A stretch of 64,000 nucleotides of DNA from Obrimoposthia wandeli (lineage: Eukaryota). Below the pieces are notes generated by a model. The model saw only the letters and a list, made by a program, of their open reading frames with translations, was not told where the DNA came from and ran no database searches. The stretch covers positions 62,001 through 126,000 of the forward strand of contig CDROCS010003447.1 of assembly GCA_977020255.1 (NCBI GenBank), in the 5' to 3' direction. Both the position numbers and the translations under genes were made by a program. Every line of letters starts with the position of its first letter. Position 1 is the first letter of the stretch. Shown piece by piece: positions 15,660 through 64,000 of this stretch.

Positions 15660-17640
15660 AGACAACGTTAGATGATGATTGAAATAACAAAAGGCAGCGC
15701 CAATATCTGATAAATGTGAAAATTGTTGTAAAGATTCAGAGCACAAATTGTCAAATATTCCCTCACTCTGTTTGTTATTTGAGAATTTCTTGGCCAATTT
15801 GTAGTCGTCATCGTTGCTCCTAAGATGCATATACATGCTCACTGCACCAGGCTCAAACTGTTTTGATAAAATATACTTTTTGATAATATGTAGAATCTTG
15901 AATTTAATTCAAACATTGATGTGTAGCCAATGGAGCTTCATTAAATGATCACTTGTGCTACACATATTGCAATAAAATAATAACTGTTAATATTAATTAG
16001 ATTAAATATAATTACAGAAATAAGAGAAAATATTCTAATAATTTTTTAGAATTTTCAGTAAAAGTTGAAACATTTTAAATTCTGGCTTCATAATTAGACT
16101 TTGATTTTAACTAAATTTAAGTTTTATTTGTGAAAAATTAAAATTTTACAAAAATATCAATCAAAAACTTTCTAAATATCATTCTGGAAATCCAGTTAAA
16201 TTTCTAATGCTCAAATTTTATTTGATTGATATAAATATTTAACTTAATAAGGTTTATCAAAATTTGTACCGCTCGTTTGATTTTCACTCGACGCTTCTTT
16301 GTGCACATCTGTGTATGTTTGTGGTATTGTTGGGGTTGTTAAACTATATTATTGTTAGAGTTAAATTTAAAAGAACATTAAAAATAGCAATATTTCAATT
16401 ACTATCCTTAAAAAATTTTAAGCAAATAAATAACAATTACTTAAGTTATGCATAAAGTTTATACCAAAATACTTATTAAAATGTTATGAAGTGACTCACA
16501 ATAGAGAATAATAGTTTTAAAGTATTAATGAATTTAGTGTAAAATTCCCATTTTTACGAATAACTTTTTAAAGAAAGACCTTAGATCAAATTCTGAACTT
16601 CACATGAGTAAATGAGTAATGAAATATCGATTTATTTCATGTATGTTCGAAAGATTTTCAACTTTCGAATTAAGAAAGATCCACAAAAATGTAATTTTTG
16701 TTAATTAAAACGTTAATTAATAAAACTTTAAAGAAGAATTTCTAGACATCTAAAAGTCACAAATAAATGAACAAAACATCATTTTAAAGTATAAATTATT
16801 TCTATTTGAAAAATGTACTTGAAATTGCCCTATATTTTGATCATTGAATTTTGATAAAGAAGTTAAAGTAAAACTTGAAATTGCCCTATATTTTGATCAG
16901 GGAATTTTGATAAAAAGAAGTGATTTTAATAAATATCACCCGATATATAGAACTCGTAAATTGTTAGGACATCTCCATTTGTGTGAAGTTTAGTGAAGTG
17001 AATTTAGGACTAGTTGTTGTACTTTTTAGAAACGTAGTTACAGTGAATTAGAGAATAAAATTTCCTACAAGTTAGACGGTGTTGTTTTGAACAAATCCCT
17101 TGAAATCAAGTAAGTATCAACTACTCCATACATTACACCACATTAAGGGAATTTTTCAGCGCCCGCATACACAACTCCTCACACATCTCCACAACACCAA
17201 GAAAAAACAAACCTTCAAATTAGAATTTGAGACAGGTAATAAAATCTAAATAGGCCACAAACAACTGCAAGCCCTATTGCTATAGAGTTCACGTTGGGGG
17301 CCTCTATCCGAGGATCTATTTAAGAGTTTCGAATAGAAACCCCAACATCTACATAAAGATTAGGGGGATATAAAAACCCTTTTTTTTTGAGAAATAGACA
17401 GAATAAAATATTTCTGGACATCGTGACTAGCCTCCTACAAAAAATTCGACAGGTCATTATTTTATTTTTGTAATTTTTATTCTTCAATATTATAACGTTT
17501 TTAAAAATATTGAAATTTTGATTTGAGAACTCTCACAATTGTTAGCCCCTGGTCATTTTTTGTATGTAATAAAATTATATTACAAATTTTGTATTTTCTT
17601 TTTATATTTAAATTAAACCCCACATTATTCACTAAAATTT
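15660..17640 (-). mobile_element. Decayed L2-clade LINE copy (RT to 3' end), interrupted by an LTR fragment
   Basis: Collinear inverted match to 37300-38990 (16355-16820 vs 37845-38305, 17500-17640 vs 37380-37480, 15680-15960 vs 38660-38890). Boundaries approximate. Confidence 0.7.
16965..17347 (+). mobile_element. 3' fragment of the Gypsy-type LTR family (copy D)
   Basis: Contains AATAAAATTTCCTACA (17054), TAGGCCACAAACAACTGCAAG, CACGTTGGGGGCCTC and terminal GAAACCCCAACA at 17347, as in copies A, B and C. Confidence 0.8.
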
Positions 17641-33328: not shown

Positions 33329-34046
33329 CTATTTGAGACTACTGCTTGCGTGTCGGATAAAGACGCGGTGGCAATGGCAGCGCATCAGCCGCTGGTAGGT
33401 CTGCCGAAAGACGGGGTTGAAAAAATGGTACACGATGGGGTTGAACATGGACCCCGAGTAGCCGACCCACTCGAAGATGAGGAGGATGCGCTCGGCGATC
33501 TCGGAGCTTGATGAGGAGCCGAGCTTGACGAAAAAGTCTACTAGGTAAGTGACAAAGAAGGGCAAGTAACAGAGTACGAAGAGAAGAAAGAGAATGCCGA
33601 GAGTCTGGACGGCCTTGCGAGAACGGTTAATCTGCTTGAGCTGGCGCTCAGATTCTTTCTTCTTGGAGAAGAAGGAGTTGTAGACGTCACCGTTGCTGGT
33701 GTTGGTGGTCTTAGGAGAGCTGGGGTTGCGGAATGAGCGGCGGAGCGATGTAGTGGACGAGGTTAGCGGGTTGGAGAGGATGCGGCAGACGGGGGGCCCC
33801 AGGTTGTCACCGCGGAATGAGACCTGTCTGTGCGGGAGTGAGGCGGGCGGTGGTGTGGATGATGCCGAGGAGTTGATAATGACGGGAGAGGCGATGTCCA
33901 GGTTGGAGGGAGATGGAGATAACAAGATCGACCGGCTCATTGAGTTGCTGGTGATACTGCTGCGATTGTGGGTGGATGAGGCTCGCTGTAGCATTGGTGA
34001 CAGCTCCACCACATCGGATTGGGCTGGCTGTGGTTGGCTCTTGATC
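33329..34046 (-). CDS. HTR2-like: 5-HT2-like aminergic GPCR, last exon (ICL3, TM6, TM7, helix 8)
   Basis: Acceptor CCCCATACAG| at 34046 (phase 2). Encodes ...RKAVQTLGILFLLFVLCYLPFF...EWVGYSGSMFNPIVYHFFNPVFRQTY..., with NPxxY and a C-terminal Cys. Stop at 33329. Confidence 0.93.
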
Positions 34047-37000
34047 CTGTATGGGGATGATTTAGGTCAAGTGAATTTACCTCCATTTATGAAGGTCTGG
34101 CAAAATCTGGGTTATGTGAACTTTGGTCGTGAACACATGAAGATGAAGTGATTGTCAAAACCAGATTTAAACAATCTTAGATATTCAAAATTGAAATGAT
34201 CATAACAGGAAATGCAACATTTTAATTTAAATTCTTTCACCAGTTCGAATAAAGTGTGAGTTATATTCCGACTGAGGGTTTTATTCGAGAACTTTCTTTA
34301 ATTTATGGATCCTATCAAAATAGTTTTCAGTCAAAGAAATTTTCCCACTGACAAAATATTTTGGTTCAGTTTTTGTCGAAATTCTTCCAAAATGTACAAT
34401 TTAGTTAAATGATATTTCAATGTTAAATTTCATAAATTCAAGAAAATTCTTTCAGTAAACATGCTTAGACGATTCGTACTCCATCAACCCCATTAACAAC
34501 TTTGGTAAATTAGAAGTCGTGTCAGAGTATGTTAGCAGACAAATAAACATTCAGAGTAAACTTCAATATGACACAAACTCCTTGATATTTCTACAGAAGG
34601 AAAAACCAGTGTAATTGGAAAAGAAGCACATGCACGGTGAAATTAGAATTAATACTGAAAAACTGTCATAAATCATAGATTAAATTATAAAATAAAATCG
34701 GTAATATATTTAACAATTAATTTACTTAAAAGGACAAAAATTTGAAATGAAAAAAAATTATTTGTTTTTGAAGTCATAAAAATGGAAGGATATTTGTGTC
34801 AAGCTATTCTTCAGCCCAGCTGCTTCAGCCCATGATATCTCAGCATTATTAAATATGAAAATTTATATTCCTACAAGTCATACGAAAAATAGAAGAAACA
34901 AATTGCTGTTTTAAAAACGAATTTATTCCATTAAGAAGATGAAATGTAAAAATTGCTCTAAAGCAGCCTTCTATAAAATGCAATTAAAACTTTCTTTTAT
35001 TTCTCAGATTCTACCCATATTATGAATGGGTTCATAAATTGCGAGTGATTTCTTTCTCTGCATTGTTTCTTCTTCTAAGTATTTTGTAACAATAACTGCC
35101 ATATTTTTAAAGAATAATTTATTTTTACACCTGTTTTATTATTATTTATTTAACTGCAGTCCCTACTAAGCCATATTTCAACCCGACTAATTTACTTTTA
35201 ACGTATTTTAATAAAAAATTACATTAACCTATGAAATACAAACTTCAACTTGACTTTCTTTTTTTCTAAAATTCGTTTTATCATTTATTTGACATTTATA
35301 AACAAATGCTGAAGATTGATAAAATACTATTTACTATTAACAGTAAAATAATGTTTAGCTATTTTTATATGTTCTCAAATCATTTTAAATAACTATTCAT
35401 TATTGTAAAGAAAATTTTATCTTTCTAATTAACAGAATTTTAAATAAATTTCTAAATTAATATAAGAATCAATTTAAATTTAAAAAAAAATTTATCTACA
35501 ACGTAACACTATTGTAAGAATGATTTAAAGTACATATTTCCAATACATACGGATTTTACTTTCCATATTGAGAACATTTCTTTTAATTCTCTTTTATTGT
35601 AAAAGTAAAAATCTTTATAAAAGCCAATGTGAAATTCGCAAATTCGTTATAAGAATATTTTGTTATCCAGGGCGAATCAAAGATAGGGCGTGGAGGGTGT
35701 GTCACGGCCCCCTCCAAATTCTGCATCAAAATCTCTTCATTCGTACTAAGAATTTTACCGTTTCTTAAGCCGACTTTTTCAATTCGATAATTTTGTTGAG
35801 TCCACTCCAAGAAATTGTATGGAACATCATATATTTATATTCTCTTAATTCATGTATTTTGGAATTTTGCTACATCTGTATATAGTTCAATTATCGCAAA
35901 CTCTGTAAGTTCTTCTACCTGCTATACCCATGTATAGTACTAATTTTGTTGTAGAAATTTCAAAAGTGCAATTGAACAGCCACACCCCCTCTTCTAATTG
36001 AACTAGCCACCACTGCCAATGGTTATATATCAATATGTTGAGTTAATATGCACACTCAGACTTGTAGATGAACTTGATATTTCAGTCCCGGCTCAGTCCG
36101 GTGTGGTTCGAGATATGAACGAGTTTGTATCTACAGACTCACCACGACTCATATCCAGATCGCTACAACCGCCGTCGAGATAATTGAGCTTTCTGAGTCG
36201 ATATCTTGAATGACATTAAATTAACTTAGTCGGAGACGATTTCGAAATATGAAATAATCAGCCCGAAACTGAAACTATTATAAGGAATTTATGAAATAAA
36301 CTATTACATATTACTGCAGCTATATATCATCGAGCTCAATGTGAACTGACTTTTAATGTAGAGGTCCATAAACTATTAATATACTTCAAAATAGAAATGA
36401 CTTAGAAAATCTTAGAATGGACGAATAGTGATAAATATAAATTTTATTTCATACATCGTGACAGGAAGTCCATTTCTGAGCGTGCTAGATATCAGTATAA
36501 TGCCAGACAAATGTTTGATCTTTAACTGAGCATTGGGCATGATTGGGCAAATGTACAGGCGTTCCTCAATGTTCCACAAGTTAGACGATTTCGATAAAAA
36601 TCTAGAAGAGTAGTCATGAGCCTTTGAAATTAATAAACAGTGTTCATAGATTTTACTTACTTCAAAAATCAAGTTGTATACCAGTCAAAGTTGAGAAATT
36701 TTGTTGTTGCTTAACTGCTTTTAAATAGTCAAAATTTCAAATGAAATTAATTTTGAAAGAACTTTTGTTACAATTGTGTATAAATGTTATAATTAAAGAT
36801 TAGCTGTAAATTTTTTCATATAAATACTTTTTAATTTCAGAACTTCTGATGCTTTTGGAATCTTTGTAATTAACTTATAATTTGAAATAATACAATCTTA
36901 AACAAGAGTTTTTAATTATTTTTTGTTACTTCATTTATTCTGTATTAAATATATTAAGCAAATATTAAGCACAGATTCATCGTAAACTTATTATTATCAA

Positions 37001-41400: not shown

Positions 41401-41643
41401 TGACGAAAAATAATGCATAGAAGAAACTTCTCGAGACTATGCCAAAAGAGCATAGAATGATGTTTCAGTACAACATAAGAAGATATGAGGGAACGAGTTC
41501 AAAGGAAGGGAATATGTAGAAGAATGGGTCAACGCAAATGGGACTAATATTGTGGATTTTATAGTTTATGTGTTCAATCAGGCTTCGAATAATCGTGTAA
41601 CAGTTAATCAATTCCCTTTGTGGTGGTGGGGCAGAGGACGCAC

Positions 41644-42014
41644 CGGAGAATGTGAAGAGCAGATCGATTGGGGAGTGTCGCGGATGTTGATGGAGTGCAC
41701 AGACCGGCGGTGGCAGCAACGATGCTGGTCTGCAGACGGGGCTTGAAGACGAGGGAGGCCACGGCATTGGAATAGAGGCTGGCCTCGGCCTCGCGACGCT
41801 GTACATGCAGGATGTTGACGGTGAGCACGTACGTGGCACTCATGATGCCCAGGGGGATGAAGAAGGTCACGACGGTCGCGATCAGGATGAAGTACGCGTT
41901 CTGGGGCCCGCAGCCCTTGAAGGAGGACGAATGCTCGTGCTGCTTGTCGAGCTCCATCGCCAGCAAGAACAACGGGCAAGCAATACTGAAGGGGATCGCC
42001 CACGCACAAAGAAT
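41644..42014 (-). CDS. HTR2-like: 5-HT2-like aminergic GPCR, middle exon (TM4, ECL2, TM5, start of ICL3)
   Basis: Acceptor TTTCCATGCAG| (phase 0) and donor CG|GTGCGT (phase 2, matching the last exon). Encodes ILCAWAIPFSIACPLF...KGCGPQNAYFILIATVVTFFIPLGIMSATYVLTVNIL. FFIPL.IM..TY.LT is typical of 5-HT2 receptors. Confidence 0.92.
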
Positions 42015-42449
42015 CTGCATGGAAAGGATAACCCTCAAATAGGTCATGCAGTCACAGTCTGAAATCGATGAATTATAAAGCAAATTATAGGTTACAAAAT
42101 CTAGAATGCATATTATATAACCTGGTATTCATAAATATGAAGATGCATTGACATTGATTGTTCTATCGATCGAACTGGAATATAATATGATCTGAGTTGA
42201 ATTTACCATGAGTACTGTGGGTACTTAAGTGAAGTCTGTCACCTTATAATGAAGATGCAACACGATTCCTACCCAAATAATGAAAAACATGCAGTTGTCT
42301 GTTGAGTAATAGCCATGCTAATCAAATGTAGCACCGATACTTGGTATTCCAGATTAATGCATTCGAAAAAGGAAGCAAATTGAATAATTGGTAGGGAGTA
42401 TTTTTCAAGAAATTCTGGGAAAAGGTAAGTCTGATAAGAAAGGCAAAGG

Positions 42450-51867: not shown

Positions 51868-53794
51868 TGTTGGGGTTTCTATATGAAACTTATAGATCCT
51901 TTTGAATGCGGAGGGCCCCAACGTGAGTTCTTATAGAAGCAGGACTTAAGGATGGTTGTGGCCTACTTAATGTTATGCTTGCCTGTCTCAATTCTTATCT
52001 GAAGGTTTTTATTGTGTCTTAATCTGAAGGGTTTAAAACAATGCTTGCTAATGTAGGAAATCGTTTATTTTCAATACACTAGACTAAAACAATACAATAC
52101 GTTTACGTACGTATTTTCTAAAAAGCTGTAATAAAATTCCTAAGACTTCTGTAAGTCTCTACACAAGTGGGGATGAACCACGTATCGATTTTACGTTAAG
52201 GTCGGTTAGTTTATTTGAGTCTTTACTCTAACTTGTGGATAAACTCCGGGCACAGATTTTGAAGAGCTGGTTGCTCTAAAATAGGGAACGAATTTAGAAA
52301 GCTTATCTCTCTAATATGGGTGATTGGTTAGTCGCTAGAGTCCTTGCTCTAACACTTAGTAGTTTAATATTCAAAATCAATTTATCAAATTCGGTTTGCA
52401 AAGGCAACACTTAGTAGTTTAATATTCAAAATCAATTTATCAAATTCGGTTTGCAAAGGCAACACTTAGTAGTTTAATATTCAAAATCAATTTATCAAAT
52501 TCGGTTTGCAAAGGCAACACTTAGTAGTTTAATATTCAAAATCAATTTATCAAATTCGTTTTGCAATGGCAACACTTCGTAGTTTAATATTCAAAATCAA
52601 TTTATCAAATTCGTTTTGCAAAGGCAACACTTCGTAGTTTAATATTCCAAACTAATTTAACCAAATTCGTGGGTATTTATACCTTTAATTTACTGTGGTT
52701 ATTAATCCTCCTCGTCTCCCGGCTTAAGTCTCTCGAATTGGCGAGACGGAAATGGCGATATGAAAAACTGCTGGACGGCAACCGTGGAATTGAGCAGCGG
52801 AACTGACTGTGAGACGGAACAGTGGAATTGACTGCGAGACTGGAACTGCAACTTTGAACTGAGCTGTCTGATATCGGCAGTGAGATCTGGTTGTATTGAA
52901 TTGTTGCTGCGAGACCTGCGCGTATTGACTTAACTTTGGTGGCGATATTCTTGCTCCTCTTACCTTTGGTTCTTTTCGTCTATTGTCTTCTCCTGGGCAA
53001 TATTGATTCTTCTCTTTTTTAGCAAAATTGTGGCCACCGCGATATTGGTGAACTGCTATTTATATTCCACGATTGATTTTCAGGTTGGCGCTGGCTCGAT
53101 GCTAGTTGGCGCGATGATGACGAATCGATTTGATGCGGCGCTGTGGATAGCTCGATGACTGCTGCTGCTGTGTTGCTGCTTGGGTCGATGACGATGCGAA
53201 TCGACGATACTGTGGGAACTGTCAAATGCATGTCAGTTCGCCCACTAATTGAAGCGCACTTACCTTGATGCTGGAATTGATGACTCCGCTGCAACTGTTC
53301 TGGCTCCCACTGAGATTTACCGTTGTTGCTGTATTGCTGCTGTATTGCCGCTGCGACACTGTGGGAACTTGTTGCGGCGCTGTTGTATTCTGTCCAAATA
53401 TGACAGTTATCTTACTAATTGCTTTTTTCTTACCTTGATGCCGTTTGATCAATCCGGCTGGCTCCCACGATACAATTACAAGATTTTCTTCTTCGTCCAA
53501 TTTCTTGTAAATTAATTAATTGATTCGTTAATTTCTTCTTTGCCTTTTCTTCTCGTTTTCTAATTTCTTGATTAATTCTTTTTCTTTGAGGGCCCTTAAT
53601 AATAACTCAAACTCCCATACATACAGCGCACTACACACGACCTTCGTGGTCCTTAATATTTAATTTTACTCGTAATTTTCCAATTTAATACTAATATTTA
53701 ATTTTTTATTTTAATTATAACCTTGCTTTCAAGGATTTTCTTTTTATATAAATTAGGTAAATTATCTAAACTTTATCAAATCCTAATCCCAACA
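51868..53794 (-). mobile_element. Solo LTR, Gypsy-type family copy A (1927 bp)
   Basis: The minus strand starts TGTTGGGATTAGG and ends GAAACCCCAACA, with a perfect TSD ATAT (51864-51867, 53795-53798). It has AATAAA..TTTCCTACA near 52052-52069 and GGACCACGAAGGTCGTG near 53640. Confidence 0.93.
52351..52670. repeat. 55-bp tandem repeat (~5.8 copies) inside LTR A
   Basis: Unit AACACTTAGTAGTTTAATATTCAAAATCAATTTATCAAATTCGGTTTGCAAAGGC starts at 52351, 52406, 52461, 52516, 52571 and 52626. Confidence 0.95.
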
Positions 53795-57490: not shown

Positions 57491-58160
57491 TTAAAGCATT
57501 TAATTAAGCACAAATAAACCCTAAAACTTAAACTTTCCGATTTTTTTCACCTCCTGACTCATTTTCTGCTCTATTTATGAATAAAAATTGAAAATATAAA
57601 AGTTAAATTACCTTTCCGTATCCATAGATGTGTTAAGGTTGAGAATTAAGAAAATTAAATATTTTAGTTGATTAAATACTAAAATAAAAATCCTTGAAAA
57701 CAAGGTCGAAAATTAAATTAAAATATTAATTTAAGTTTTAGAAGTAAAAATAGTGAAATATTAGGGTAAAATTAGGAGGACCACGAAGGTCGTGTATTAT
57801 GCGAAAATGTATAAAAGTTAAATTAATTAACCCAAAAGGGACAATTGCAAAAAGTAATTAAGGAAAATTAAGAAAGAAAAACGGTTAATTAAAACCGTCA
57901 ATCAAGAAGAAGAAAGGTAAGCACTTTTGCGTGCAATAACTAAAATTTATTTTTGCAGCTGTCAATTGATTGACATTGCATTATTCGCTCCGGTTTCGCT
58001 GAAGGAAGACTCAAAACAGCCGTCAACTGATTGACGTCCAGTGCCAATATATAAAGGCAGGGTTTCCAACTACAATCACAAATACGGGATCGACCACGGA
58101 ACCAGGTAGTGATTTGGTTAGAGTGGAGATAATTAATTTTATTGAAGGTCCCAGTCAACA

Positions 58161-59246
58161 TATATCCGAAAGTATATCCGAACGTATATCCGAAACGTAT
58201 ATCCGAAAAGTATAACCGAAAAGTATATCCGAAAGTATATCCGAAACGTATATCCGAAAAGTATATCCGAAAAGTGTATCCGAAAAGTATATCCGAAAAG
58301 TATAACCGAAAAGTATATCCGAAACGTATATCCGAAAAGTATAACCGAAAAGTATATCCGAAAGTATATCCGAAACGTATATCCGAAAAGTATATCCGAA
58401 AAGTGTATCCGAAAAGTATATCCGAAAAGTATATCCGAAAGTATATCCGAAAAGTATATCCGAAAAGTATATCCGAAAAGTGTATCCGAAAAGTATATCC
58501 GAAAAGTATAACCGAAAAGTATATCCGAAACGTATATCCGAAAAGTATAACCGAAAAGTATATCCGAAAGTATATCCGAAACGTATATCCGAAAAGTATA
58601 TCCGAAAAGTGTATCCGAAAAGTATATCCGAAAAGTATAACCGAAAAGTATATCCGAAAAGTATATCCGAAAAGTATATCCGAAAAGTATATCCGAAAAG
58701 TATAACCGAAAAGTATATCCGAAACGTATATCCGAAAAGTATAACCGAAAAGTATATCCGAAAGTATATCCGAAAAGTATAACCGAAAAGTGTAAAAAGT
58801 ATATCCAAAAAGTATATCCAAAAAGTATATTCGAAAAGTATAACCGAAAAGTATAACCCAAAAGTATATCCGAAAAGTATAACCGAAAAGTATATCCGAA
58901 AAGTATATCAAAGTATATCCGAAAAGTATAACCGAAAAGTATATCCGAAAGTATATCCGAAAGTATATCCGAAAGTATATCCGAAAAGTCCGAAAAGTAT
59001 ATCCGAAAAGTATATCCGAAAAGTATATGAAAAGTAAAAGTATCCGAAAAGTATAACCGAAACGTATATCCGAAAAGTATATCCGAAAAGTGTATCCGAA
59101 AAGTATATCCGAAAAGTATAACCGAAAAGTATATCCGAAAAGTATATCCGAAAAGTATATCCGAAAAGTATATCCGAAAAGTATATCCGAAAAGTATATC
59201 CGAAAAGTATATCCGAAAAGTATATCCGAAAAATATATCTGAAAAG
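58161..59246. repeat. 12-13 bp minisatellite (TATATCCGAAAAG and variants), ~1.1 kb, inside LTR B
   Basis: Read directly from the sequence. It explains all the FGYTFRIYFSDIL / KVYPKSISEKYIR ORFs. Confidence 0.97.
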
Positions 59247-59361
59247 AAGACAATATCGGGAAAGAAGACGATCCCACGGGCGCTCCACACGGATCTGCAT
59301 CAGACATCCCGCTAGTCGACGGAATCAGCGAGTAACTGGTAAGAACACAGACTAGGTTCAT

Positions 59362-59790
59362 TCATTGCCCCTAGTAGGCAATTAGGTTACTTTCATTACC
59401 CCTAGTTGGTAATTCTACGTTTAAAATAATAAACAAATTCATTACCCCTAGCTGGTAATTAGGATCTTTGTCTCTTTAGCACAATCATTGCCCCTAGTTG
59501 GTAATTAGGATCGGACCTTTATTCATTGTCCCCAGCGACAATTAGGAAACCTACCAGACGTTTTTCCCGTAAGATCATTGTCCCTAGCTGACAATTAGGT
59601 TCATTCATTGCCCCTAGTTGGTAATTCGGATAAATATTCATTGTCCCTAGTAGACAATTCGGTAAGACTCATTGTCCTCCAGCTTATAATACGGTTTGTT
59701 AATTGACCGTAATTGACTATTTGGAGTAAGTTTTTATTGTCATCTTGACAATTAGGTTTTAGGAGATCCCTTGTCTACAGTAGACAATTT
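59362..59790 (+). repeat. Array of about 11 short palindromic units (ATTRYC-N5-7-GRYAAT) with unique spacers, inside LTR B
   Basis: Stems start at 59364, 59395, 59441, 59487, 59525, 59577, 59607, 59640, 59671 (broken), 59736 and 59771. Confidence 0.85.
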
Positions 59791-60329
59791 GGGTCAAACA
59801 CACACAGAGAGAGTAAGGAACAAAGAAACATTTAGCCAGAGATAAGAAGTAGGAGCGAAGAAATTTAAGAGAGTTGCGTTATAGAGTAACCAACCTGAGT
59901 AAGAAGACTAAACCTAAGAAACTTAATCACCTGAACGTAAAATCGATACGTGGTTCATCCCCACTTCTTGTAGAGACTCACAGAAGTCCTTTAGGAATTT
60001 TATCATACTTTTTAGAAATACGTACATAAACGTATTGTGGTGTTAGTTACGTGAATTTTGAATAAACAATTTCCTACATTAGAACAAGTTGTTTTTACAC
60101 CCTTCAGACTAAGAGACATCAAATCAAATACCTTCAGATAGTACAAGAGATTAGGCAACCATAACACTAAGTAGGCCACGACCAACTTTAAGACCTGCTT
60201 CTAATCGAACTCACGTTGGGGCCCTCCGCACACTAAGAGGCTCTATACCAAGTTTCGTATAGAAACCCCAACAGATGCATCCGAAATGTCAGATAACATA
60301 TAAATAACTGCATTTTCGTCGTTTGCTAT

Positions 60330-61663
60330 TGTTAGGATTAGGATTCTAATAATTATGAAAAATTAATTATTTATATATCAAAATAAATCCTTGAAAACAA
60401 GGTTAAAAATAAAATAAAATTTTAAAATAAGAAATTAAAAAATTAAATAACAAAATTATTAAGAATATTTGGGACCTTGGAAGGTCATGTTTGATGCGTA
60501 GTATATAGTAAATATTAAATCTAGTAAAAGGGCCAGTTAGAGAAAATCCAACTTAATTAAGAAGAATCAGAGACAATTAAAAAGCACTCAAAGAAAAACG
60601 GACTCCGAAAGCAGTCCATTTGACCAAGAAGAAGAGCCGCTGAGAAATAAACCAGCCGCCAGACAGTTTCAATTAATAACTGGGAGCGAAGCAGCTTTCA
60701 TTGTGATCCCGGTAAGTGGAAATTGCAACAGTGCACTTAAACTAATTGTTCTCATTCAGATCGGCTGGCTCTTGATAAAAGTGGAAAATACAGGAATTGT
60801 TCGCACAACATTTCAGAAATCAGTTAAAAGTTAAAATCAGTTGCAACCTAAATCGGAGCCGACTAAAGCGAAGTGAAAAAACAAAAAGGTAACGATTTAG
60901 AAAAGAAATTCATTATTCCGATTCCAGAAATACCCTATATCACCGAAAGCCGATATTCTCCAACGCAATCACAGAGGCCGAAGACCGGATTTCGCAGCCA
61001 AACGAAGCAGACTACGGATTGGAGGAAGGTAAGAAAGGCAAATTCATTTATCGAATTGAAAAAAATGGACCCATAATTTCGTTTATCATATATTTATCGA
61101 ATTGAAAAAGAATTGACCTATAATTCCGTTTGTCATAAATATCGAATTGAAAGAGAATTGACCCATAATTTAATAGTAATTTCGTCGACAAGAATTGTCC
61201 CGTATTTTTAGAGCAATTAACTCTATAAACTTTACAACTTAACTTGCCCATATTTTAGAGCGAAAAGCTCTCTAAAATCAACGAAACAGACAACGCCCAT
61301 ATTTTTAGAGTAAAGACTCCAGTGAATAAAAACCCCAAAATTAAAATCGATACGTGGAACATCCCCACTTGTGTAGAGACTTTGTAAAAAGTATTTAGGA
61401 TTAGTTTTGAAATTTTTAGAACGTGTTTAGAACGTAACTTAGAGTGTTTTGGAGAATAAAAGATTTCCTACAACTAGACAGCGTTGTTACAGACCCTCAC
61501 ACTTAGACATAACAAACCTTCAAATAAGAATTGAGACAGGCAAGCACAACTTAAGTAGGCCACAAACAACTGCAAGTCCTGCTGCTATAGAACTCACGTT
61601 GGGGCCCTCCATCAGAGGATCTATATCTAAACTCCAAAGTAGTTTCATATAGAAACCCAAACA
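60330..61663 (+). mobile_element. Solo LTR, Gypsy-type family copy C (1334 bp), flanked by a 56-bp direct repeat
   Basis: Starts TGTTAGGATTAGG and ends GAAACCCAAACA, with AATAAA at 61455. 60274-60329 matches 61664-61719 at 54/56. It contains a ~46-bp repeat in three copies at ~61048-61170. Confidence 0.9.
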
Positions 61664-61893
61664 GATGCATCCGAAATGTCAGATAACATATAAATAACTG
61701 CAGTTTCGTCGTTTTCTATTATGGTATTCACTTTTCGTTATGGTATTCATTTTGTTTAATCTTCATATATATTAAAATCACATACAAACTTTTTCTACCC
61801 ATGTAGGTTAGTGTATGTATGCGTCCATATATTTATGGAATTGATTTTGCGCCATGTTATTCATTTATGTTGAATGGTAAGTTTTTATTAGTG

Positions 61894-62080
61894 TGTTAGG
61901 ATTAGGTTTTGTTTAAAATTAAAAATAAATAATTGTTTTATAGTAAAACGAAAATCCTTGAAAGCAAGGTTAAGAATTAAATAAATTTTAAAATCAAGTT
62001 AAAATATTAAAATTAAAATAAGAATAAATATTAGAAGACCACGAAGGTCGTGTATAATGCGTTGTATATAAAGATATTAA
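61894..62080 (+). mobile_element. 5' ~185 bp of another family LTR (copy H), joined directly to internal gag-like sequence
   Basis: TGTTAGGATTAGG at 61894, ATCCTTGAAAGCAAGGTT, GACCACGAAGGTCGTG and TATATAAA (62065). Similarity to the other LTRs ends abruptly near 62080. Confidence 0.85.
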
Positions 62081-64000
62081 AGTGTTACTAGCAGTATCGG
62101 ATACAAATGATTTTGATAACGCCGTGCGAAAGGCGAGAGAAATTGAGAAAAATATAAAAAATAACGCAGCATTGGCAATTTACGCAATGACTGCAGGTGA
62201 CGACGATAAGACAAAGGTATTCGTGAATAAAACAGAACCGAGTAATTTTCAGAATCGAAATTATGGACAAAATAAGTTTGAAAAAGTAGATGAATCCAGT
62301 AACGGAAACAGAGATAATTTCCGAAGTAGGAATCGAGATGATTCGAGAGGTAGAAATAATAGTGAGTCTTGGAACAGGAATCGAGATGATTCAAGAGGTA
62401 GAAATAGTAATGATTCCAGGAATAGATTTAATAGAGATAATTCAGGAAATCGCCAACCTTGGAGAGGAGACGATAGGAATTATAACGCAAACAGAGGAGA
62501 GCGAAGTGACTCTCGATTTGGAAATAATACAGGAAGTAGTGACGGAAGATTCAATAATCGAGGAAGCGGTTTTGAATCGAATTTCCGAAGAAATGATTTT
62601 AGAGGACGATATGATAATAGACAGAATAGTCGTCGAGTACAGTTCGAAGATGAACAAAATAAGATATATATTCGAGGGAGAATAATGTGTTACACGTGTA
62701 AACAAATGGGTCACTATTCGAGAGATTGTACGAGAAGTAAAGAGTTCGGAACTAACAGATTTGGAAATAATAATTTCGGTAATAATAATTTTGGAAATAA
62801 TTATAGAGGATATAATTCACCCCCGCCATGGAATAGAGGTGGTGGATATACTCCACAGCCATGGAGACCGAATAATCAGTATACAGATAGACAACAGTCA
62901 CCAGGTAGATACAATAACTATGCAGACAGACAGCAAGGAGCTGAGAGATACAATAATTACGTAGGACAGCAAGGAGCTGACAGATATAATAATTCCGGTC
63001 GATATAATAATAATAATGTTGACAAGACAAATAGTCGCGAGAGTTCGCCGAAACCGAAAGGAAATTTTAGTTATGTAAACGATGACAGCGATAGGAATCG
63101 CGAGACCGAGCTTCGACGCGAAATAGATTTTGAAGATAGTGATAGTAAATTTGAACGAATGTTGGGAATAATTAAAGATTCACCACATACAAAGATGGCG
63201 AATTCATCTACGTTGTCGAAACAAGAAAAAAGTCTACACTCGAGAGAAGAGATGAATGATTTAATGAATCGAATACTAGAAGCGTATGAGACGCCAATAG
63301 AGAAAACGTGTAACGCACAACCTATGACTGATCATGTAGAAGCAGCAAGAAATGCTACGAGTATGGAAAATGTAAAAAAGATAATTAGCGAAGCTAAGGA
63401 GACGTTGAATCAACCGTTAGACGACACGAGTGAAGTTTTGGCCAAATTACAAACAATTAAAGTGCACAGATTGGAAGAAGTACGAGCGGAATTGGTTAAA
63501 CATAGTCATGATAACTTGGGTTACAAAGAAGTAACACGAGGATTATTGAAAGGATATGGTCGCTACGTACAGAGATCAAACCAAAAAGGAACGATGAAAA
63601 TTTCACTTCGATTAATTTCCGGACAGATTATACATGAAAAACTTAACGTGTATCAAACAATGAAAACTATAAGAAAAAAGTTGGCCGAGAAACTTGAAAT
63701 TGATGGAATGAACATGTTGTTCCATTATAAAGGAAGATCACTAGATGATGAGGACGTACCAGTCGAGTTTGGATATCCGATAGGAAATGAATTAGAGGAA
63801 AAAATTGATGTCATCACTGTAGGACGTCAGGAGTTAGTAGATAATGAAGGATTAACTGAGATATTAAACTCGGCGTTAGAAATGATAAAAACGCCTATAG
63901 AAATTTTAGACAGTTCAAGCGAAAGCGGAGATAATGATGTAGCTGAAGCTTGGAACAAGACATCCACACCAGAACCGTACGTAGCTGAATTACAAGACGT
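62058..64000 (+). CDS. 5'-truncated retrotransposon Gag-like polyprotein with CCHC zinc knuckle and ubiquitin/SUMO-like domain; open to the window end
   Basis: No stop in frame from 62058 (after TAA at 62055) to 64000, about 647 codons. The first in-frame ATG is at 62187. CYTCKQMGHYSRDC lies at 62688-62729 within R/N/D/G/Y-rich low-complexity sequence. The UBL is at 63594-63824. Confidence 0.88.
63594..63824 (+). other. Ubiquitin-like (beta-grasp) domain within the Gag-like ORF
   Basis: MKISLRLISGQIIHEKLNVYQTMKTIRKKLAEKLEIDGMNMLFHYKGRSLDDEDVPVEFGYPIGNELEEKIDVITVG aligns without gaps to ubiquitin 1-59, identical at M1, I3, G10, I13, T22, K29, K33, I36, G47, L50 and D52. It has SUMO-like P56/G60/IDV features and no C-terminal GG. 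Confidence 0.78.

Follow-up and report, generated by a model that had tools for sequence, protein, structure and literature searches.

Probable minimal introns in the AUG-poor LTR leaders of a giant Burro-like Ty3/gypsy retrotransposon of Obrimoposthia wandeli

We analyzed a stretch of 64,000 nucleotides from Obrimoposthia wandeli (GenBank assembly GCA_977020255.1, contig CDROCS010003447.1, positions 62,001 to 126,000; hereafter the window, numbered from its first letter). It contains three long terminal repeats (LTRs A, B and C) and one copy with a truncated 5′ LTR (element D), belonging to a family of giant Burro-like Ty3/gypsy retrotransposons. Retroelements are expected to shed introns, being copied from RNA. 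The interiors of these LTRs carry short GT-AG segments that are, on the evidence of their sequences, very probably true spliceosomal introns. We think it likely, if far from assured, that the LTR interiors hold one to three such introns of 38-50 nt within a predicted 5′ leader of 2-3 kb that is free of AUG, with a long R region, partial splicing and a replication template that is mostly unspliced.

An earlier note on this sequence had picked out two segments in each of LTRs A, B and C, and all six indeed begin with GT and end with AG at the positions and lengths it gave (Table 1). Its proposed comparison with shuffled sequence had a divided outcome. Under a loose rule, which asks for GTRR with an AG anywhere 39-48 nt downstream, shuffles of the three window LTR stretches reach at least two matches 60-95% of the time; the three LTRs alone are thus not above chance by this rule, and the case rests on the family. 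Under a stricter rule, the window LTRs score 1, 2 and 2, vs. 0.07-0.08 in shuffles. For the family, we took the first 100 matches, in contig order, to the conserved GACC..GAAGGTC anchor, representing 75 distinct interiors, and scored positions +80 to +700 from the anchor for segments of 38-50 nt. At least one segment was found in 85 of the 100 LTRs and two in 44, whereas the reverse strand gave 7 and 0, and shuffles 11.8 and 0.7. Counted over the 75 distinct interiors, 61 had at least one segment and 28 had two (vs. 9.4 and 0.7, respectively). Segment density was 2.0 per kb in LTR interiors, vs. 0.2 in the coding region of the element and in non-LTR DNA of the window, and 0 in the conserved 3′ block of the LTR.

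The segments also have the makeup of U2-type introns: GT..AG ends, a GTRAG donor, a T-rich 3′ part, strand specificity and a narrow length distribution, with a peak at 40-47 nt. The first YAG lies 38-50 nt from GTAAG in 68 of 96 cases, with the T fraction climbing from 0.17 to 0.38, whereas the same spacing follows four control words in only 26/73, 10/25, 18/48 and 6/15 cases (35-40%). In the GTAAGCAC intron lineage (n = 31), 28 members stay within 37-49 nt while their 3′ halves and flanks are only about 40-47% alike. TRAY motifs resembling branch points are scattered from -4 to -36, with small peaks at -11/-12 and -15/-16. A 42-nt GT-AG intron is also present in a host chaperonin gene, other host introns being 78-90 nt and longer; host introns were trusted only if found with a close reference and with an AT-rich interior, a distant reference having given spurious short calls.

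Intron-less LTR variants, which the earlier note had suggested looking for, were found among sister copies. Among 188 LTR segments, 7 of 19 groups of simple indels (25-80 nt) were exact GT..AG losses, six of them of 42 nt. The filter behind this count removed repeat-mediated events and those with at least six equal placements, unfiltered scans being swamped by tandem arrays. The chance of an exact GT..AG loss is 0.8% per event for two possible placements, and the exact losses had 1-4; even at a 2% chance per event, 7 out of 19 would occur less than once in a million. Two more exact or near-exact losses (L070/L074 and L023/L033) were missed by the filtered count. LTRs L256 and L257, which lie 21 kb apart and are identical at 599 of 600 positions, both lack a 42-nt intron that 18 relatives retain, as expected if the loss went through reverse transcription.

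Some LTRs carry both forms. The L118 type holds an intron-containing copy first and a joined copy after it (5 joined and 3 intact sites genome-wide), in L167 the spliced version precedes the unspliced one, and L074 has a partial intron, behind which the exon end is duplicated and an exact junction follows. In these mixed-form LTRs, a template switch between an unspliced and a spliced RNA seems to have taken place, and reverse transcriptase very likely met the introns in both states. Together, the strand-specific excess, the length peak and the exact losses in sister copies argue that the segments are real introns.

The claim that the LTR interior is poor in AUG extends to the whole family, with a sense-strand depletion that begins at about anchor +40. 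From anchor +60 to the 3′ box, outside the short introns, ATG is the most depleted triplet (71 vs. 1002 expected, about 14-fold), while CAT occurs 815 times vs. 1018 expected; 40 of 49 LTRs have zero or one ATG in the leader region. The gap continues through the 3′ block (5 vs. 102 expected) and past the primer-binding site (1 vs. 56) up to the start of gag, 0.7-1.2 kb beyond the LTR, an earlier ATG being present in one of four copies. The 600 nt ahead of the polypurine tract show no depletion (129 vs. 129 expected). The short introns are just as free of ATG as their surroundings (2 seen vs. 57 expected), so splicing is not the cause of the AUG-free leader, and the unspliced leader is probably translated as well. 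Each window LTR has a single ATG between anchor +60 and its end, at 53231 in A (in intron A2), 59027 in B (in the array) and 61065 in C (past the last donor). The earlier remark that the lone ATG of A falls inside an intron is thus true, but has little weight since the introns are AUG-free in general.

ATG is frequent between anchor 0 and +40 and falls just past the first TATA, which lies at +26 to +34 in 73 of 75 LTR types (11 ATG vs. 101 expected in +60 to +200); this drop points to a transcription start near +60. At the other end of the LTR, the AATAAA signal was correctly placed about 200 nt before the terminus: it lies 200-229 nt from the end in 34 of 37 LTRs, and AATAAA..ATTTCCTACA is found at 52069 in A, 60061 in B and 61455 in C, about 200-213 nt from each end. 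We infer a start about 60 nt past the anchor, a U3 of about 200 nt, an R of about 0.9-2.2 kb, a U5 of about 190 nt and a scanned leader of 2-3 kb. The short U3, very long R and ~200-nt U5 of the earlier note fit both the ATG gap and the fixed poly(A) signal, but the U3/R border is placed only indirectly and a second TATA is present in 64 of 75 types.

Only some of the RNAs, we propose, would have the short introns spliced out, and the introns would boost expression in the way of promoter-proximal introns. The R copied by reverse transcriptase would mostly be unspliced, either from unspliced RNA or from the 3′ copy of R after strand transfer, and loss would consequently be rare, intron-less copies not taking over. 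The assertion that persistence implies regulated retention was too strong: it is plausible, but a mostly unspliced template or selection against intron-less copies would suffice. The last donor would open a T-rich, array-filled stretch and serve as major splice donor, from which the leader would be spliced to acceptors ahead of the 3′ RING genes. The further donors reported upstream of a repeat array are present in B and C (59339 and 61029, respectively). Across the family, the switch from T-poor to T-rich sequence coincides with a donor in 31 of 49 LTRs (vs. 4.5 in shuffles), 22 of these being late donors, and in 4 of 4 elements an acceptor-like YAG lies 0-2 nt ahead of the starts of the RING open reading frames (ORFs) close to the 3′ end. 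The last donor has the look of a genuine one and may be joined to acceptors before the RING ORFs, trans-splicing being an alternative source of the RING exon leader. A splice from the last donor would remove the primer-binding site, so that its product would never be copied back and would leave no trace in DNA. Like its foamy virus counterpart, this donor may also contribute to keeping the 5′ poly(A) signal silent.

A further possibility, which we put forward tentatively and would not bet on, lies in the geometry of the two R copies. The 5′ copy would be spliced for expression, while the 3′ copy would remain unspliced and serve as the template for new LTRs, with hairpins over the donors as the switch. 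The introns would thereby survive, and template switches would shuffle promoter-exon-intron modules across some 17,000 LTRs.

Several observations weigh against the preferred reading of short, partially spliced introns in a long R. The intron rule was composed after viewing the first 99 interiors, and the 75 LTR types are related by descent. The segments lie at or below the low end of the Schmidtea short-intron peak, which is 45-85 bp in the portion of PMC13594981 consulted here, and most host introns are at least 78 nt. No genome match with exact flanks shows the exact absence of a window intron (0/22 for B1, 0/34 for A1, 0/19 for A2 and 0/4 for C1), these matches being young copies and not independent replication events; all 22 matches of B1 retain the segment, one with an altered donor, and all 34 of A1 do so, two with an altered acceptor. 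Four sequencing runs of unrecorded kind from one sample yielded no clean GT-AG joint when mapped to the interior of A. In two of them (X2 and X4), joints at the A1 donor swap 50 or 48 letters for 6 or 4, a net 44 nt equal to the length of A1, which is a hint only. The exact absences are unpolarised between gain and loss, the order of forms in the chimeras is mixed (intron first in two origins, spliced first in one), and a search for poly(A)-tailed retrocopies ending past the poly(A) signal found none. Covariation in the donor hairpin is weak (16/21 vs. 13.4, p 0.06). Lastly, 64 of the 75 types have the second TATA, at about +190 to +580 (15 in shuffles, 11 on the reverse strand), 47 of 78 introns lie upstream of it, and a linkage test tied the interiors to neither LTR end.

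The last three points bear on the idea that the introns are real but that transcription of genomic RNA begins no earlier than at the second TATA. The first intron would then belong to U3 and be inherited from the RNA's 3′ end, the LTR being a tandem of two promoter-exon-intron units. Indeed, with an internal TATAWAWR in so many types, some introns could be U3 for replication. The second TATA lies within 8 of 78 introns, and donors cluster 80-119 nt behind it (14 cases), a spacing suited to a short first exon. Interiors, moreover, are swapped as modules between near-identical LTR ends: among pairs whose 3′ blocks are at least 97% identical, 18 of 41 have unrelated interiors, as do 4 of 15 pairs that match at this level in their 5′ blocks. 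However, AUG depletion sets in far upstream, at about +40 to +60, and translation of RNAs started at the first TATA is likely. Often the second TATA lies in a palindrome whose outer pairs covary (25/40 vs. 12.6), which fits an RNA hairpin equally well; the site may be a promoter, an RNA hairpin or both. We consider a start at the second TATA unlikely, although it deserves to be kept in mind. The scheme of the earlier note, in which regulated retention sorts an unspliced, packaged genome from spliced mRNA and the array is removed as a long intron in R, is less probable still. The rarity of losses in young families favors it, and many first introns have a small hairpin over donor positions +5 to +8 (pair probability 0.7-0.8; z < -2 in 14 of 47) that could tune U1 binding and is a possible brake on splicing. 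Nevertheless, introns and arrays are AUG-free too, and the TTTTAG/AG motifs it proposed as acceptors, which do exist, are better read as the 5′ arms of TAGAG-x-loop-y-CTCY hairpins: CTC comes after TTTAGAG in 43 of 46 motifs, and complementary bases occupy the variable pair in 45 of 62 cases vs. 25.7, a figure inflated by related sequences. No long-intron loss was found among 907 donors, although RNA from which a long intron had been removed would still have the primer site and be open to copying. It is also conceivable, though very improbable in our view, that the segments are promoter or enhancer modules acting as DNA, i.e. palindromic factor-binding sites that resemble introns, and that the gaps are microhomology deletions. 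Many segments do hold CACTT..AAGTG or GCAC..GTGC palindromes, some contain the second TATA as described above, and most indels in the LTRs are repeat-mediated. Such modules would hardly explain why 7 of 19 non-repeat indels, with so few possible placements, end exactly at GT..AG, why the donor-to-YAG distance stays fixed despite diverged sequence, or how L074 came to have an exact junction behind a partial intron, which is unlike the outcome of a plain deletion.

Table 1. Features of LTRs A, B and C and of element D, in window coordinates
Feature	Position	Strand	Remarks
LTR A	51868..53794	-	Solo LTR; TG..CA termini; 4-bp target duplication ATAT
A1, short intron candidate, 44 nt	53390..53433	-	GT-AG
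A2, short intron candidate, 45 nt	53219..53263	-	GT-AG; contains the sole ATG of A past the first TATA
A3, likely third short intron, 48 nt	52916..52963	-	Absent from the earlier note
Second (internal) TATA-like box of A	53057..53064	-	
Last donor-like site of A, AAG/GTATAA	52677..52682	-	Directly before 55-bp array; same motif at T-poor/T-rich switch of other LTRs
Poly(A) signal of A	52064..52069	-	
LTR B	57631..60273	+	Target duplication GATG
Conserved GACC..GAAGGTC anchor and first TATA-like box (57808) of B	57779..57815	+	
B1, short intron candidate, 42 nt	57917..57958	+	4-bp GCAC/GTGC hairpin over donor
Second TATA-like box of B	58048..58055	+	
B2, candidate, 42 nt	58106..58147	+	Weakest signals: GTAGTG donor, AAG acceptor, CAG alternative at 58154
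13-bp tandem array within B	58161..59246	+	
Last donor of B, candidate major splice donor, GTAAGA	59339..59344	+	
Conserved 3′ block of B	59940..60273	+	AAATCGATACGTGG box, poly(A) signal 60061, predicted U5
LTR C	60330..61663	+	
C1, short intron candidate, 48 nt	60712..60759	+	GT-AG
C2, short intron candidate, 39 nt	60889..60927	+	39-42 nt in relatives
Last donor of C, candidate major splice donor, GTAAGA	61029..61034	+	
Three TAGAG-x-loop-y-CTCY hairpins of C	61205..61325	+	The motifs called acceptor-like in the earlier note
Poly(A) signal of C	61455..61460	+	
Element D	61894..64000	+	5′ LTR truncated after first TATA, fused to gag region (CCHC knuckle)

The candidate A3 has a length of 48 nt in 22 of 22 collected matches, and the 3′ LTR of element D (L045), which lies beyond the window, has the same two-intron layout with two 39-nt segments of its own. 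The 56 nt behind LTR B (60274-60329) recur behind LTR C (61664-61720) with two differences, and the CTAT duplication expected for C appears only past this repeat, which could reflect a target duplication of unusual length or, alternatively, unequal crossing-over right at the LTR ends. The palindromes CCTTG-AAAG-CAAGG and GACC-N5/6-GGTC (window 57688-57707 and 57779-57791) are conserved in the U3 of all LTRs; we take them to resemble nuclear-receptor half-sites. Elsewhere in the window, a more distantly related LTR of this family is represented by its 3′ part at 16800-17347, which includes the poly(A) signal and hairpins, and 33329-34066 and 41604-42128 (minus strand) are exons of a host rhodopsin-family G-protein-coupled receptor (PF00001).

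The element itself is abundant: the anchor has 17,245 exact matches in the 1.35-Gb assembly, and 3189 candidate sites were found for A's conserved 3′ end. Paired LTRs lie 18-23 kb apart, giving an element size of 20-25 kb, and LTR length ranges from 1268 to 2637 nt, with a median of 1886 (51 complete copies). Pfam domains include a Gag zinc knuckle, a mononegavirus-type fusion glycoprotein, protease, BIR (1.6e-9), RING, a second protease, reverse transcriptase, RNase H, integrase and two dual-specificity phosphatase domains. PF00098 and PF24664 share one ORF in copy L037, and the order in copy L032 is protease, BIR, RING, protease, reverse transcriptase, RNase H, integrase. A ubiquitin-like match was weak (0.066), and MATH, BCL2, ankyrin and dUTPase had no Pfam match at 0.01 among 12 ORF pieces, profile-profile comparison not having been run. 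By size, copy number and domain layout, this is a giant, Burro-like, envelope-bearing Ty3/gypsy retrotransposon.

In four copies (L031, L037, L040 and L041), the primer-binding site lies 8 nt past the LTR end, behind a TATTAAAT spacer, and occurs in two forms. It presumably matches elongator tRNA-Met. The gag frame of four copies (L031 5876-6964, L037, L040 and L041) is open for 104-128 codons ahead of its first ATG, and could have a non-AUG start. At least seven B-type LTRs stand in tandem on one contig, spaced by about 3.3-4.2 kb (G000 C460:1500-25100; L079, L080, L090-L092, L100 and L101). Beside ordinary intron-bearing CCT genes, we also found about 20 full-length TCP-1/chaperonin family ORFs without introns, each some 550 codons long, on different contigs (G000, L142-L165), which are either a gene expansion or mobile cargo.

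Planarian Burro and GYPSM1 are giant gypsy-like elements of more than 20 kb with thousands of copies, properties shared by the window element together with a Gag CCHC knuckle, BIR, RING and the protease-reverse transcriptase-RNase H-integrase series (PMC6431247). The likeness extends to a mononegavirus-like fusion glycoprotein placed between gag and protease (PMC6431247), while the window element differs from Burro in its two DSPc phosphatase domains and 3′ RING ORFs. The section of PMC6431247 devoted to these elements makes no mention of LTR introns or leaders. PMC8532177 mentions Burro, and its main text does not contain 'intron' or 'splic'. Literature searches of main texts brought up nothing on introns, minimal ones included, within the LTRs of Burro or of other gypsy elements from animals.

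If the segments are introns as we propose, an animal LTR family retains minimal introns across dozens of otherwise unalignable LTR types. The genome would moreover record both rare losses and spliced/unspliced chimeras, providing a natural assay in which intron loss through reverse transcription can be counted and intron upkeep studied. A leader of 2-3 kb purged of AUG implies cap-dependent scanning over an unusually long distance, and some 17,000 LTRs with a promoter and splice donors could supply first exons to host genes. In this last respect, PMC4558846, in the portion consulted here, describes donors of solo LTRs spliced to host exons, and not introns internal to LTRs.

Three systems invite comparison, each through a portion of the cited source. 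The major splice donor of foamy viruses lies in R, where U1 silences the 5′ poly(A) site (PMC3694450). As in the window family, the donor stands upstream of the poly(A) signal inside the LTR of an element with spliced accessory genes, the spliced RING genes of the window family being only predicted. The foamy R measures 193 nt and holds a donor only (PMC3694450), whereas the predicted R of the window family is 5-10 times longer and holds whole introns. Penelope of Drosophila virilis has a 75-bp intron near its start site that is spliced in most transcripts and yet retained; its removal abolished reporter protein, which the authors propose as the reason for retention (PMC2377424). The likeness is a short intron near the start site within the terminal repeat of a retroelement. 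Penelope, however, does not belong to the LTR elements, reverse transcription is not how its pseudo-LTRs arise, and it has a single intron instead of a modular set (PMC2377424). In maize, LTR retrotransposons have introns within the LTR, often two, with canonical junctions and an average length of 1303 bp, and long reads show mostly LTR-contained non-coding RNA; the authors of this 2026 preprint call it the first evidence of introns in LTRs themselves (PMC13192763). The maize introns are long and proven by long reads (PMC13192763), whereas the probable introns of the window family are animal, measure 38-50 nt, show exact loss at the DNA level and lie in a predicted AUG-free leader. Introns in LTRs are already known from maize, and for the probable minimal introns of these animal gypsy LTRs the evidence at the DNA level is unusually good.

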